Shown in pieces: positions 700-18,077 of a stretch of 28,369 nt of DNA. Each line of letters starts with the position of its first letter. Position 1 is the stretch's first letter. The stretch spans positions 1 to 28,369 of the forward strand of contig JAQTPU010000001.1 of assembly GCA_028712575.1 (NCBI GenBank). Reading direction: 5' to 3'. A program made the translations under genes and the position numbers. Below the pieces are notes generated by a model. The model was not told where the DNA came from. It was given only the letters and a program-made list of their open reading frames with translations, and did not search any database. The stretch is from Candidatus Iainarchaeum sp. Its GTDB lineage: Archaea > Iainarchaeota > Iainarchaeia > Iainarchaeales > GCA-2688035.

Positions 700-1470
700 A
701 TGAAAAGCAAAAAAAAACATGAAAAAACAAGGCTGGGTTTTTTCTCGCTTACCTGCTGCGAAGGCTGCGAGCTTGCAGTCCTGGAATTAAACCGGGATTT
801 CGTAAAAGCCCTTGGTTTTGTTGAAATCCTGGAATCAAGGATGCTGCGCGAAAAAAACCCCCCGCAGGAACTCGACATTGCCTTTGTCGAGGGCAGCATT
901 GTGGGAAAAGACGACCTGGAAAAGGCGCAGAAAATAAGGGAAAGAAGCAGGTTCCTTGTTGCAATGGGCGCATGCGCGACAATTGCCGGAATTCCCGGCA
1001 TTAGGAATGCCCTGCCAGAAAAAATAAAATCCGCGCTTCCGCAGCGCGCAGTAAAAAAGCCGCTCGAAGCCGTGCATAAGCTGTCCGATTTTGTAAAAGT
1101 CGATTTTGAACTGCAGGGCTGTGCAATAAACGAAAAAGAGTTTTTGAAAGTGCTTGTCCAGTTCCACAACGGCTTTTTCCCGCGCCTTGAAAATGTCCCT
1201 GTCTGCAAGGAATGCAAGGAAAAGGAAAATCCCTGCCTCCTGCTTGAAGGAAAAGCCTGCCTCGGCCCTGCCAGTTATGCGGGTTGCAATGCCCTCTGCC
1301 CGTCCCAAAAGGCGCAGTGCATAGGCTGCAGGGGCTTTACAAAAGACGCGAATTTTTCAGCCCTGAAGCGTTTATTCAAGGAATTCGGCCTGACAGAAGG
1401 GGAAACAAAAAACATTTTCACATACTTTAACCCCGACCCGTTTGCGGAGGCTTCAAATGCACGGCAATGA
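700..1470 (+). CDS. hydD: Group 3b [NiFe]-hydrogenase small (delta) subunit
   Basis: SLTCCEGC, FVEGS, GACA, LQGC proximal-cluster motifs; C-terminal VCKEC...CLGP...GCNALCP...CIGCRG clusters. Confidence 0.92.
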   Translation: MKSKKKHEKTRLGFFSLTCCEGCELAVLELNRDFVKALGFVEILESRMLREKNPPQELDIAFVEGSIVGKDDLEKAQKIRERSRFLVAMGACATIAGIPGIRNALPEKIKSALPQRAVKKPLEAVHKLSDFVKVDFELQGCAINEKEFLKVLVQFHNGFFPRLENVPVCKECKEKENPCLLLEGKACLGPASYAGCNALCPSQKAQCIGCRGFTKDANFSALKRLFKEFGLTEGETKNIFTYFNPDPFAEASNARQ

Positions 1471-2755
1471 GCATTTTTCCCTGCATGACATTACAAAAAT
1501 AGAAGGCCATGCAAGCCTCGAAGTCCAGCTGAAAGACGGCTTTGTGGAAAAATGCGAATTCAGAATCAGCGAGAACCACAGGTTTTTTGAAGACATGGCA
1601 ATTGGCAGGAGCTTCGAGGAAATCCCGCTTATAATGTCAAGGATATGCGGCTTCTGCTGTTCCTCGCACCTGAATACTGCAGTAAAGGCATGCGAAAAAG
1701 CGCTCGGTGTTGAACCCTCGGAACAGGTTTTTTTGCTGCGCGAACTCTCCTCGAATATGGAATTCCTGAAAAGCCATGCCCTGCACCTTTACCTTCTGGT
1801 CCTGCCGGACTATCTTGGAAGGGAAAGCGCGCTCCATTTCAGCGGAAAAGAGCACCAGTATATCCACGACTGCCTTGACTTCAAAAAAACAGCGACAGAC
1901 ACCCTGAACGTGCTTGGCGCAAGGGCCTATCACACAGTGAACGTGAGAGTAGGCGGATTTTCAAAGTTCCCGAATGCGGAAGAGCTTGGGCACTGCATGC
2001 ACGACCTCGAGCACCTGCGCAAAAAAGCAATTGAAACAATAGAATTGTTTGCAGGCTTCCTGCCGGAAAAGGGATTCGACCGCAATGCAAATTACGCCGC
2101 ATTGTCGGGAAAAAACTATTCCCTGCTGGAAGGGAAAATCCTTTTCGGCAGCGGCACTGTTATTCCGGAAGAAAAATTCCTTGAGCATGTGGAAGAGTCG
2201 GTAATTCCCTATGCAACGGCAACACAGGCCAGGTTTGCGCAGAAAGAATATTTTGTAGGCGCGCTTGCAAGGATAAACCTCAACCAGGCCGAGCTGTACC
2301 ACGAGCCGAAAAAAATAATCAGGGATTTGAAATTGAAATTCCCGAACACTTCGCCATTTTACATTAATGCCGCACAGGCAGTTGAAATGCTCCAGGCCAT
2401 TGATTCAAGCATTGAAATCCTGCAGATACTCGACAGGATAAAAATAAGGCAGGAACCATTGAAAAAAACCATTCCAAAAGAAAGCACGGGCACAGGCGTT
2501 ACTGAAGCCCCGAGGGGCCTGCTTTTCCATTCCTATTCAATAGGCTCCGACGGCCTGATAAAAAAAGGCCATATTGTAGTCCCTACGCAGCAGAACTCAA
2601 AAAACATAGAGGCAGACCTCAAAGGCTTTATTCCGGGCCTGCTTTCAATGCAGAAGGAAAAGGCTGAACTTGAAATAGAAAAACTGATTCGGGCATATGA
2701 CCCATGCATTTCCTGTTCGACGCATTTTCTCAAAGTAGACTGGAAACGCCTTTAA
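1457..2755 (+). CDS. hydA: Group 3b [NiFe]-hydrogenase large (alpha) subunit
   Basis: KIEGH, L1 motif SRICGFCCSSH, EAPRG, VPTQQN and L2 motif RAYDPCISCSTH followed by a 9-aa C-terminal extension. Start taken at ATG 1457, overlapping the delta stop. Confidence 0.95.
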   Translation: MHGNEHFSLHDITKIEGHASLEVQLKDGFVEKCEFRISENHRFFEDMAIGRSFEEIPLIMSRICGFCCSSHLNTAVKACEKALGVEPSEQVFLLRELSSNMEFLKSHALHLYLLVLPDYLGRESALHFSGKEHQYIHDCLDFKKTATDTLNVLGARAYHTVNVRVGGFSKFPNAEELGHCMHDLEHLRKKAIETIELFAGFLPEKGFDRNANYAALSGKNYSLLEGKILFGSGTVIPEEKFLEHVEESVIPYATATQARFAQKEYFVGALARINLNQAELYHEPKKIIRDLKLKFPNTSPFYINAAQAVEMLQAIDSSIEILQILDRIKIRQEPLKKTIPKESTGTGVTEAPRGLLFHSYSIGSDGLIKKGHIVVPTQQNSKNIEADLKGFIPGLLSMQKEKAELEIEKLIRAYDPCISCSTHFLKVDWKRL

Positions 2756-3110
2756 CAGCCTCTTCAAGCGGCATTCCCTGCGGAACAGCAATAATGCGGA
2801 TTTTTTTTCCCCGCAATTTCCCTATTTTTTCAAAAAGCAGGAGCTCTGTTCCCAGGTCAAAATCATGCAGGGAAAAATTTTTTTTTTCCCGCAAAAACTT
2901 CAAATCGGCAAAAACACGGATTTTTTCAATCCCTTCCGCACAATCAAGAATCACAAGCTCATCGGGAATTTCTTCCAAATCGTTCAGGGATTCGATTTCT
3001 TCGAATTCAAATTTCCCGGATTGCCTTTTATTTTTCAATTCTTCCGCAGCCTTCAATGCGATTGAATCCCCTTCCAGCAGGCGGTTCCCGAAAACAAAAA
3101 CTTTTTTCAT
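2730..3110 (-). CDS. Hydrogenase maturation endopeptidase (HycI/HybD-like)
   Basis: VFGNRLLEGDSIA (GNxLxxDD-like), VILDCA and SLHDF motifs; adjacent to the large subunit. Confidence 0.85.
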   Translation of the reverse strand: MKKVFVFGNRLLEGDSIALKAAEELKNKRQSGKFEFEEIESLNDLEEIPDELVILDCAEGIEKIRVFADLKFLREKKNFSLHDFDLGTELLLFEKIGKLRGKKIRIIAVPQGMPLEEAVKGVSSLL

Positions 3111-3145: not shown

Positions 3146-3277
3146 GCCTTTTCTTGAAAAGAACATTGCAAACTTTGGGTTTGCGACATTGAAAAGCATT
3201 GCTTTCGATGCAACGCAAACTTTGTTTGCATTGTGCCTCACAAAGCTTTGCTTTGTAAGGAAGCCTTGGGAAAAGAA
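3146..3277 (+). repeat. 132-bp modular palindromic intergenic element (REP/MITE-like), long copy 1
   Basis: Base-for-base identical to 17946-18077; contains four tandem short hairpins. Confidence 0.92.
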
Positions 3278-3343: not shown

Positions 3344-4258
3344 ATGCTGTCGGAAAAAAAAGCCTGTTTTCTGGTCGTGCTTACCGCAATAATCAGCGGC
3401 TTCTCTGTTTTTCTCAATAAATTCGGTGTTGCGGAAACAGACGCAATCGCCTTCACTGCGCTCAAAAATACCCTTGTTGCAGTTTTCCTGATTTCAATAA
3501 TCCTGCTTGCAAAGGACTTTCCCTCCCTCAAAAGCCTTTCAAAAAAGCAATGGGCAAAGCTTGCGGCAATAGGCCTGATAGGCGGAAGCATCCCGTTTGC
3601 GCTTTTCTTCTCCGCCCTGAAACTCACTTCCGCGGTCAATGCGGGCTTTTTCCACAAGACGCTTTTTATTTTTGCAGCGGCATTCGCAATACTTTTCCTG
3701 AAGGAAAAAATAAGCAAAACCTTTCTCATTGCCGCAGGCCTTCTCCTGCTCGGCAACTTCCTGCTTTTCCCGTTTTCTGGATTCGGGCTTCCCGAACTTC
3801 TTGTTGTAACAGCGGTTATTTTCTGGGCAGCGGAAAACGTGCTCTCAAAGCACGTTCTTAAGGAACTGAACGGGAACACTGTGGCTTTCGGCAGGATGTT
3901 TTTCGGCTCCCTGATACTGCTTTTGTTCATTGCGGTTTCAGGCAGATTCGGGATTCTCACGGCAGTAAATCCAGTGCAATTCCAGTGGATTCTCCTCACT
4001 TCAATCCCATTGCTGTTATTTGTGCTTACATTTTACAACGGCCTGAAGCACATTCCCGTTTCAAAGGCAACCGCAATTTTAATGCTCGGCCAGCCGATTA
4101 CAATGCTCCTTTCTGCGGTTTTCATAGGCTCTGCTGTTTCATTCAGCCAGGCAACAGGAATTGCCCTCACTCTCATTGCAATTCTCCTGCTCTTCGCCTC
4201 TTCTTATTTCCTCGCTTTCCTGCGCTCAAAGGGTTTTTCTCTTGCCGCAACAAAATGA
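3344..4258 (+). CDS. DMT/EamA-family transporter (about 10 TM)
   Basis: 304-aa hydrophobic protein with two EamA-like halves; GGSIPFALFFSALKLTSAVNAGFF...FLKEKIS and YNGLKHIPVSKAT...QPITMLLS motifs. Confidence 0.88.
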   Translation: MLSEKKACFLVVLTAIISGFSVFLNKFGVAETDAIAFTALKNTLVAVFLISIILLAKDFPSLKSLSKKQWAKLAAIGLIGGSIPFALFFSALKLTSAVNAGFFHKTLFIFAAAFAILFLKEKISKTFLIAAGLLLLGNFLLFPFSGFGLPELLVVTAVIFWAAENVLSKHVLKELNGNTVAFGRMFFGSLILLLFIAVSGRFGILTAVNPVQFQWILLTSIPLLLFVLTFYNGLKHIPVSKATAILMLGQPITMLLSAVFIGSAVSFSQATGIALTLIAILLLFASSYFLAFLRSKGFSLAATK

Positions 4259-4967
4259 AACTTCGGCGCTGCAATTTGCATGCAGGTATTCCCTGGTTCC
4301 AAACGAACTCGGCTATTGCGGAAAAGAAAAAGCCTTCCTTGAATTCGGAAAATTCCTGAAAAATCCGGAAGAGAAAAAAATTCCTGAAATAAAAAACCTG
4401 CTCGGCTCCTTTTTCGGGCTGCATTCCTATCTTGATTTGATTGCACGCGCCAATAACAAAAATGTTTTTGACCCCGAAGTCCTGGAAGCATACTGGCTTG
4501 GAAACAGGCTTCTTGAAAATGTTCCCCGCGCAGGCATCAGCCGGGCAATTCTGCATCTTGAAAAATACGGCCTGCCGGAAAAAATTGCGGAACAAAAAGC
4601 CATTTCCCTTCCGGAAGGCGCGCTTCCGCACCATTCCCTTCACGTGCTTCACGTGAATTTTGTCACGCGCAAATTAAGGCCGCTTGTCCGGAACCTTTCA
4701 GACTGCCTTATCCAATGGGCGGAAGTCAGGGCAGTTTCAAACGGCAAGCTGCGCGTAAAGGGCATTGAATTAAAAGCCCTGAACAAAAAATTTGTTCTGC
4801 AGGAAAAAACAAAAACAATTGAAAACCAGTTCTCCCTGCTCCCTGAAAAAGGCGATTTTGTTTCAGTGCACTGGAAAAACGCAATCGAAATCCTTTCAAA
4901 AGAACAATTAAAAAACCTGCAGAAAACAACAATGAAAAACATTGGCCTTGCCAATCCGGAAAATTAG
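4255..4967 (+). CDS. DUF6390-like protein with HypC-like C-terminal domain; start ambiguous (ATG 4255 is out of frame, so a -1 shift or a CTG start at 4269 is needed)
   Basis: FACRYSLVPNELGYCG, EAYWLGN, PHHSLHVLHV and GDFVSVHWKNAIEIL match my recollection of the DUF6390 family. The coding frame begins at 4254 (AAT GAA ACT TCG...). Confidence 0.75.
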
Positions 4968-5125
4968 GTTTTTTCCACGACATTCCTGTGCTGCACAATC
5001 ACCCTGTCGCCTATTTTTGCCTTTATCAGGTTTGCGGCTTCCCTCTTTTCAGGGCCGTAATCAATAACTGCGATTTTCCCCTTCCGCTTCAATCCAACAA
5101 CTTTTCCTGGAACTGCAAGGCACAT
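4964..5125 (-). CDS. hypC: HypC/HybG/HupF-family hydrogenase maturation chaperone, short form (53 aa); not in the supplied ORF track
   Basis: Hand translation: MCLAVPGKVVGLKRKGKIAVIDYGPEKREAANLIKAKIGDRVIVQHRNVVEKT*. Canonical MCLAVP N-terminus; the ATG overlaps the upstream stop (TGATG). Confidence 0.9.
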   Translation of the reverse strand: MCLAVPGKVVGLKRKGKIAVIDYGPEKREAANLIKAKIGDRVIVQHRNVVEKT

Positions 5126-5397
5126 CAACGGCGCCTCCTGAAAGTCTGCCCCACTATCCTGAAAATTCCGCCAAGCCTTTCCAGCCTCCGCGCCCTTTTC
5201 AAATGCCAGCGGGCAATCGCATTTTCCTCCGCCTCTTTTCCGTCCAGCCTTTCGGCAGCGCCCATTGCTGTTGCACCCATGGCTTCAGCCGCCCCGTTAT
5301 GCGCACGGATTCCCGCTTTTCTTGCCGATTCCGCGCTTTTCACGTGGCTTGCTGCCCTCTTTTCAAAAAAACCCCCCTTTTTTTCCATAAAAAACAA
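5125..5397 (-). CDS. Hypothetical basic Ala/Arg-rich protein translationally coupled to hypC
   Basis: 90-aa ORF whose TGA overlaps the hypC ATG; AT-rich promoter-like region at 5400-5445 upstream. Confidence 0.6.
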   Translation of the reverse strand: MFFMEKKGGFFEKRAASHVKSAESARKAGIRAHNGAAEAMGATAMGAAERLDGKEAEENAIARWHLKRARRLERLGGIFRIVGQTFRRRR

Positions 5398-17945: not shown

Positions 17946-18077
17946 GCCTTTTCTTGAAAAGAACATTGCAAACTTTGGGTTTGCGACATTGAAAAGCATT
18001 GCTTTCGATGCAACGCAAACTTTGTTTGCATTGTGCCTCACAAAGCTTTGCTTTGTAAGGAAGCCTTGGGAAAAGAA
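17946..18077 (+). repeat. 132-bp modular palindromic intergenic element, long copy 2 (further hairpins extend to about 18155)
   Basis: Identical to 3146-3277 at an offset of exactly 14,800; followed by GCTTTTTGC-TAAA-GCAAAAAGC and GCTAACGCGAA..GCTTCGCT. Confidence 0.92.

Follow-up and report, generated by a model that had tools for sequence, protein, structure and literature searches.

We describe here a protein of the DUF6390 family (PF19927), encoded at positions 4242–4967 (plus strand) of the analysed window, i.e. the whole 28,369-nucleotide stretch of contig JAQTPU010000001.1 from Candidatus Iainarchaeum sp., which represents a DPANN-type archaeal metagenome-assembled genome (MAG; 0.9 Mb, 78% complete). 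The last ~88 residues of DUF6390 are a true and complete homologue of the hydrogenase maturation protein HypC, with an oligonucleotide/oligosaccharide-binding (OB) barrel and a C-terminal helix, and are preceded by an all-helical domain that is unique to this family. Furthermore, DUF6390 is a hydrogenase-linked gene, and, bar some Actinomycetota and one Thermoplasmata genome, DUF6390 and the set of HypD, HypE and HypF replace each other across genomes. We consider it probable that DUF6390 is a two-domain accessory protein, which acts as a scaffold or chaperone for the iron cofactor in a HypD/E/F-independent maturation of [NiFe]-hydrogenases.

The gene encodes 241 amino acids (aa) and was found to start at the in-frame TTG 4242, and not at 4161, in agreement with the database gene call (P0001, 241 aa and 100% identical to the protein of the window) and with the N-termini of homologues; it ends with the TAG at 4965–4967. 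Read from this TTG, the gene requires no frameshift. The protein matches PF19927 with 115.8 bits (cut-off 25; E = 2.9e-33) over profile positions 8–238 of 244, i.e. above the Pfam gathering score and across most of the model, and the family name given to it in an earlier, sequence-only reading of the window was correct.

The two domains of DUF6390

The AlphaFold2 (AF2) model of the full-length protein, built on 22 homologues, has a predicted local distance difference test score (pLDDT) of 95.8 and a predicted template modelling score (pTM) of 0.92, and comprises ten helices (residues 1–155), a five-stranded barrel (158–218) and a terminal helix (220–237). The barrel and the last helix form a HypC-like domain of residues 154–241 (4701–4964), in which both the AF2 model and the structural comparison show the two hallmarks of HypC, an OB barrel and a helix at the C-terminus. 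Foldseek against the PDB placed the Thermococcus HypC on top, with further HypC chains next, and a VIA scan of 48,161 PDB representatives ranked HypC 2z1c_A first (Z 9.2, root-mean-square deviation 2.1 Å, 71/71 residues, model residues 153–237), the runner-up being the HypC of E. coli (2ot2, Z 7.7), while generic OB folds scored Z ≤ 6.8. Among clusters of the AlphaFold Database (AFDB), proteins of the HypC family rank after DUF6390 itself, and several of these matches pair residue 155 of the query with residue 2 of the hit.

Sequence profiles led to the same family. A profile of 141 C-terminal domains, compared with PDB sequences, had HypC chains as its best matches (E = 6.4e-5 and 1e-4), with GDiVsvHWglavekL aligned to GDWVIVHTGFAIEKL and CliswGkV to CLAVPGKV, and the alignment by hhalign of the DUF6390 C-terminal domains with 48 HypCs encoded next to DUF6390 genes gave a probability of 97.2% (E = 2.9e-11), with xC of the former aligned to MC of the latter. 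Individually, 80 of the 141 domains match PF01455 at E ≤ 1 (best, 3.7e-8); the domain from the window scores 12.6 bits (E = 0.15) and does not reach the curated cut-off of 28.5. A single-sequence phmmer search with residues 150–241 against PDB sequences returned no HypC, which was found with the family profile only. Taken together, the HypC likeness of the C-terminus is far beyond chance. The sequence-only reading had postulated a second HypC fold there from the stretch KGDFVSVHWKNAIEILSKEQLKNL (residues 203–226; 4848–4919), and structure prediction with Foldseek confirmed the fold; its starting point, 4720, was set too far downstream, as the likeness begins at Cys155 (4704–4706), and the first third of the domain had been overlooked.

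Cys155 is the counterpart of HypC Cys2 in the hhalign and AFDB alignments and is conserved in 99% of 155 family representatives (one per 50%-identity cluster). It lies inside the chain, behind a helix of residues 149–155, and is not the first residue as in HypC. The pair His210-Trp211 (4869–4874) corresponds in the hidden Markov model alignment to HypC His51 (E. coli numbering), the conserved His of the GDxVLVH motif; His210 is present in 155/155 representatives and Trp211 in 98%. Judging by these alignments, the domain keeps both HypC ligand positions, Cys155 (for Cys2) and His210 (for His51).

Three AFDB entries (A0A7V5EYB9, A0A7J4PWT5 and A0A7J3E2Y6) deviate from the usual architecture: one of 343 aa, named as a GntR-family regulator, matches the DUF6390 model over residues 94–330 and may have an extra N-terminal region fused to it, and two others (142 and 184 aa), which carry a HypC annotation, loosely align over most of DUF6390 and may be intermediate forms.

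The N-terminal domain (residues 1–153; 4242–4700) was modelled alone from 116 sequences (AF2 pLDDT 97) as ten helices without strands. No convincing relative was found in the PDB, the best VIA match (Z 5.6) being to short helical hairpins and Foldseek reporting E ≥ 1.5; a profile of the 116 domains matched nothing among PDB sequences, and searches of AFDB clusters and the ESM Atlas returned DUF6390 proteins alone. The motif GYCG and the His cluster PHHSLHVLHV, both pointed out in the sequence-only reading, are indeed situated in this domain, at residues 24–27 (4311–4322) and 129–138 (4626–4655), respectively. Within the former, Cys26 (4317–4319) is 97% and Gly27 93% conserved; within the latter, the PHHSLH part (4626–4643) contains His130 (83%), His131 (4632–4634; 100%) and His134 (77%). 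Across the 155 representatives, Cys26, His130, His131, His134, Cys155 and His210 are the sole conserved Cys and His columns.

HypD has a four-Cys [4Fe-4S] site plus Cys41-type motifs and an alpha/beta Rossmann-like domain fold. The core of DUF6390 had been suggested to be a HypD-like scaffold; we reject a HypD-like sequence for it and consider a HypD-like fold unlikely: the domain is modelled as all-helical, the protein has no match to PF01924 (HypD) at E ≤ 0.01, and its two family-wide Cys columns, C26 and C155, are too few for the four-Cys site. HypD was also missing from the fold-search matches, an absence which by itself does not exclude it. A HypD-like role is, therefore, an analogy at most and not homology; the distribution of the two proteins, which exclude each other as described below, does agree with that suggestion.

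DUF6390, hydrogenases and Hyp proteins across genomes

Members of the family were detected in at least 594 species genomes, including those of Iainarchaeota, Woesearchaeota/Nanoarchaeota, Micrarchaeota, Thermoplasmata, several lineages of the candidate phyla radiation (CPR), Chloroflexota, Acidimicrobiia and Actinomycetota. Among 201 genomes sampled from the (DPANN) phylum of the window, 56 were DUF6390-positive and 68 had a hydrogenase large subunit, with 55 having both, and DUF6390 occurred in a single one of the 133 hydrogenase-less genomes. HypD was found in five genomes of this sample, all of them DUF6390-negative (0/56 co-occurrence). In one family of the sample, a hydrogenase is common to all 13 genomes and is accompanied by DUF6390 in 11 of them and by HypD in the remaining two. 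HypD, HypE, HypF and HypB were not found in five DUF6390-positive DPANN genomes that are 92–99% complete (one of them a single contig), and neither HypA, HypB, HypD, HypE nor HypF was found in the genome of the window, with its completeness of 78%.

An independent sample of 201 Chloroflexota genomes gave 21 DUF6390-positive and 93 HypD-positive genomes with an overlap of 0 (hypergeometric P = 8e-7, an overstated value, since genomes that are related do not count as independent); a large subunit is encoded in 19 of the 21, frequently 3–6 kb from DUF6390. In a third set, consisting of 50 DUF6390 genomes from many phyla, the large subunit was present in 49, HypB in five (being absent from 45) and HypD in five, namely in four Acidimicrobiia and one Thermoplasmata. 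HypF is present in the same five genomes; HypE exceeds the cut-off in four of them and is split in the remaining one, G035. HypB was seen together with DUF6390 in two HypD-less genomes (G020 and G050).

The G035 genome is that of the Thermoplasmata member, in which a hypF-hypD-hypE cluster is located alongside DUF6390 (contig C1, 338882–343565; locus L067). Its hypD has three in-frame TGA codons and its hypE is split over two frames; either the canonical pathway may be decaying in this genome or the long reads may contain sequencing errors.

To these patterns corresponds the linkage in the neighbourhoods of 83 DUF6390 loci, which spans archaea and bacteria and several hydrogenase types. HypC is encoded within 1 kb of DUF6390 in 49/83 loci, a hydrogenase large subunit within 8 kb in 50/83, and one or the other is near DUF6390 in 65/83, with 16/83 being without any linked gene. 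Both Cys motifs of the Ni-Fe site and the cleavable tail are kept in 40 of the 51 large subunits adjoining DUF6390. A divergent family of HycI-like proteases is found within 5 kb in 34/83 loci, and a canonical HycI-type protease in loci from Chloroflexota and Thermoplasmata. A gene for an EamA transporter precedes DUF6390 by 50 bp or less in 52/83 loci and accompanies it in DPANN, CPR and Thermoplasmata. The Chloroflexota loci have no EamA gene, and in them HypC is directly adjacent and the large subunits carry the motifs RICGICGDNH and DPCLPCGVH, which we take to be signatures of group 1h; other DUF6390 loci adjoin Mbh-type group 4 or minimal two-subunit hydrogenases.

In 12 Woesearchaeota loci, a gene for HypA directly follows the HypC gene that faces DUF6390. 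The product of one of these (L039:10904–11248) has an MHE start and two CxxC pairs and matches PF01155 with E = 7e-8; the nickel chaperone HypA is kept, consequently, in some of the HypD/E/F-less genomes. Clustering of all open reading frames (ORFs) within 7 kb of DUF6390 across the 83 loci, performed with a conserved candidate for the formation of the CN and CO ligands in mind, yielded, apart from antisense shadow ORFs, only hydrogenase subunits, proteases, HypA, an oxidoreductase resembling thioredoxin reductase and a family-5 solute-binding protein.

A family-5 solute-binding protein adjoins DUF6390 at L051:8157–9746 and in seven other Chloroflexota/Saccharimonadales loci, and a NicO-type transporter at L010:6013–6675. 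The family-5 group includes nickel and peptide binders, and these neighbours hint at a link to metal uptake.

A different setting was observed at L074:9938–10717 and in 15 other loci, mostly from Acidimicrobiia and Actinomycetota, where genes for FtsH, an L,D-transpeptidase and MurJ surround DUF6390 and no hydrogenase gene is nearby. DUF6390 may have another role in this clade, as four of the five Acidimicrobiia genomes searched also have HypD, HypE and HypF.

Partner HypC and the surroundings of the gene in the window

In the window, the DUF6390 gene faces a small hypC gene on the minus strand (4964–5125), which codes for 53 aa starting with MCLAVPGKV (a 54-aa ORF with the start at 5128). The two are arranged tail-to-tail with a 4-nt overlap, the TAA of hypC being at 4964–4966, as had been noted from the sequence. 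This mini-HypC matches PF01455 above the cut-off (HupF_HypC; 35.2 bits, cut-off 28.5, E = 1.4e-8, profile positions 1–45 of 65). It contains Cys2 but has a Gln at the position of His51 (VIVQHR), and the greater part of the C-terminal helix is missing; its orthologues are 53–54 aa long with 83–85% identity.

The loss of the His is not a local feature. Among 48 HypCs adjoining DUF6390, Cys2 is invariant in the aligned sequences, and the His51 position is occupied by Gln in 34/48, by Ser, Asp, Val, Leu or other residues in the rest and by His in 0/48; three Thermoplasmata HypCs, which were left out of this set, do have His. In four genomes of the window's phylum that bear HypD, the sequence of HypC is GDYVLVHVGFAI and includes the canonical His. 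The short length is, on the other hand, restricted: 40/48 partner HypCs comprise 66–82 aa with a helix of their own, and those of 53–57 aa occur in the clade of the window only. Prediction of a complex between DUF6390 and mini-HypC, both entered as alignments, gave a median score of 0.22 against a mark of 0.32, which speaks neither for nor against binding.

Upstream of DUF6390, and overlapping its start by 17 nt, is the gene for the EamA/drug-metabolite transporter (3344–4258, plus strand; PF00892, E = 3e-37), to which DUF6390 is translationally coupled. It is preceded by genes for a divergent HycI-like hydrogenase maturation protease (2730–3110, minus strand; PF01750, E = 0.0039, below the cut-off), a [NiFe]-hydrogenase large subunit (1442–2755, plus strand; PF00374, E = 4e-33) with the motifs RICGFCCSSH and DPCISCSTH and the C-terminal tail FLKVDWKRL, a hydrogenase small subunit (700–1470, plus strand; PF01058, E = 1.9e-22) and a partial NAD/FAD (gamma) subunit (1–388). 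This hydrogenase is of the group-3b type, and its gene order was also found in one of the other loci (L007).

A perfect direct repeat of 132 nt occurs at 3146–3277 and 17946–18077, 14.8 kb apart, one copy being located just before the start of the HycI-like protease gene. A transposase was not observed. A 90-aa Ala/Arg-rich ORF (5125–5397, minus strand) overlaps the start of hypC. No Pfam family matches this ORF and none of the 83 loci contains a homologue, so that it is probably either not a gene or lineage-specific.

Proposed role and comparison with known systems

In the canonical pathway, the Fe(CN)2CO iron is held on the HypCD scaffold by C2 of HypC, C41 of HypD and possibly H51 of HypC (PMC12134894), and a review from 2025 considers six Hyp proteins (A–F) necessary for the NiFe(CN)2CO cofactor (PMC12134894). 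DUF6390 may be viewed as the permanent union of a HypC module with another module that carries Cys and His residues (Cys26 and His130/131/134), and its Cys/His set would hold the iron destined for the Fe(CN)2CO unit, a job done elsewhere by the HypC-HypD pair. The free His-less HypC would then come in as partner or carrier and deliver the iron group to the large subunit. Insertion of nickel, with the help of HypA in genomes that have it, and removal of the C-terminal tail by the protease would follow. The presence of HypA beside the module in 12 loci, together with HypB in the two HypD-less genomes mentioned above, points to the iron branch of maturation rather than the nickel branch. A more far-reaching version is that DUF6390, the His-less HypC and, in anaerobic lineages with small genomes, the coupled EamA form a complete alternative to HypC-HypD-HypE-HypF, i.e. 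a second, evolutionarily independent route of building or acquiring the Fe(CN)2CO half, used in DPANN, CPR, Thermoplasmata and Chloroflexota with several hydrogenase groups; this we put forward tentatively, as a possibility to which we give somewhat less than even chances.

Several observations weigh against assigning DUF6390 to iron-cofactor assembly. The N-terminal domain looks unlike HypD and its conserved Cys residues are too few for a [4Fe-4S] cluster; Cys155 is internal, whereas HypC needs its Cys as the first residue; and no candidate for a source of CN or CO was detected among the conserved neighbours in the ORFs within 7 kb at the 83 loci. DUF6390 coexists with HypD, HypE and HypF in the four Acidimicrobiia genomes and the Thermoplasmata genome, and in Acidimicrobiia it is placed among unrelated genes (FtsH, YkuD and MurJ). 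Furthermore, most of the genomes are MAGs and the related ones are non-independent samples, the exclusion of HypD is equally that of the whole Hyp set, and TIGR00073 would miss archaeal HypBs of the Mrp/MinD type (PMC12134894).

Of the other explanations, the one proposed from the sequence alone was that the ligands of HypC are split between two polypeptides, mini-HypC giving Cys2 and the C-terminus of DUF6390 giving the His and the helix of a composite iron site. The half of it that concerns His proved sound beyond the window: the invariant His210 stands in DUF6390 where the partner has Gln, the complementarity is family-wide, and the two genes are adjacent in 49/83 loci. The helix of DUF6390 is likewise real and conserved, and mini-HypC is short of it, but its supply in trans would be a local peculiarity and not the rule, since 40/48 partner HypCs keep their own. 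The Cys, moreover, is not divided at all, the HypC-like domain of DUF6390 being complete and retaining its own Cys155 in alignment with Cys2. The idea is, therefore, only partly right, and we regard it as unlikely. We give a similarly low chance to DUF6390 being solely a client-specific chaperone of the large subunit, as are HybG, HupF and HoxL, with the Fe-CN-CO group arriving by another route, e.g. through uptake of a precursor by EamA. Binding of large-subunit precursors is a known property of domains of the HypC family (PMC9002611), the EamA gene is translationally coupled to DUF6390 in 52/83 loci, and no ligand-making enzyme was found nearby; nevertheless, a free HypC is already there for that job, the additional conserved residues Cys26 and His131 suggest more than a plain chaperone, namely a metal site, and the Chloroflexota modules have no EamA gene.

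A role in binding or delivering nickel, with the His cluster and Cys residues standing in for HypB or HypA, appears improbable. The PHHSxH cluster, the absence of HypB from 45/50 DUF6390 genomes and from that of the window, and the NicO-type transporter (one locus) or family-5 solute-binding protein (eight loci) beside DUF6390 would fit with it, but the homologous domain belongs to HypC and hence to the iron branch, 12 loci have HypA next to the module, G020 and G050 have HypB in addition to DUF6390, and His131 alone of the cluster is invariant. Least credible of all, in our opinion, is a general function outside hydrogenase metabolism (as a thiol/metal or regulatory protein), for which the link to hydrogenases would be incidental. 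The Acidimicrobiia/Actinomycetota genes without hydrogenase neighbours, the 16/83 loci without a linked gene and the GntR-named 343-aa entry could be quoted in its favour, yet the large subunit was encoded in 55/56 DUF6390-positive genomes of the window's phylum (and DUF6390 in 1/133 of those devoid of hydrogenase), in 49/50 and 19/21 of the DUF6390 genomes in the other two sets, and the five Acidimicrobiia genomes tested all encode hydrogenases as well. We thus favour the iron-cofactor scaffold or chaperone as the probable function of DUF6390.

Whatever the case, hundreds of species lack HypD, HypE and HypF but possess [NiFe]-hydrogenases, belonging to several groups, that seem to be intact. 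They carry a HypC-fusion protein instead, and these species include free-living Chloroflexota with genomes of 5–7 Mb. DUF6390 may, therefore, mark an undescribed way of making the NiFe metal centre. If it does take over the scaffold function, the question of where the cyanide and carbonyl ligands originate becomes directly testable, a much smaller gene set could suffice for heterologous hydrogenase production, reconstructions that dismiss the hydrogenases of DPANN and CPR for missing hyp genes would need revisiting, and DUF6390 could be annotated as a hydrogenase maturation factor. One JGI (Joint Genome Institute) record already names a DUF6390 homologue ‘hydrogenase maturation factor’, which implies that automatic pipelines have glimpsed the HypC likeness. 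Our literature search found no publication on DUF6390 or PF19927, nor on the combination of DPANN, hydrogenase and HypD, and on hydrogenases devoid of hyp genes the looser searches turned up no work other than that of Jaffe et al. 2020 (PMC7304191).

Among known systems, the closest is the HypC/HybG/HupF family (PF01455, TIGR00074; structures 2z1c, 2ot2 and 3vyr), with which residues 154–241 of DUF6390 share the OB barrel and C-terminal helix, the C-x-x-x-[WP]-G-x-V start, the GDxV-x-H motif with the Cys2 and His51 positions, and the genomic association with hydrogenase genes. In contrast to HypC, the domain in DUF6390 is fused behind a helical domain of 150 residues, its Cys is internal, Trp usually takes the place of Pro6, and it occurs beside a separate HypC and not instead of it. 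With the HypC-HypD scaffold, DUF6390 would have in common the joining of a HypC-type module to a second Cys/His module, and the two systems are mutually replaced (0 co-occurrences in 56 and 21 DUF6390-positive genomes). It differs in that its modules form one polypeptide, that it bears no likeness to HypD in sequence and apparently none in fold, has no [4Fe-4S] set of Cys and, as modelled, no ATPase-type alpha/beta domains, and that HypE and HypF, the suppliers of cyanide to HypCD, are absent as well. Finally, the hyd1/hyd2 loci of CPR, related to group 3b, are hydrogenase loci of the same kind in small genomes, and a neighbouring family with partial homology to HypC was reported near the CPR hydrogenases (Jaffe et al. 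2020, PMC7304191). That study gives no description of DUF6390 or its domain structure, of HypCs devoid of the His or of the absence of HypD, HypE and HypF, and the DUF6390 module, unlike those loci, extends to archaea and Chloroflexota and stands beside other hydrogenase groups.

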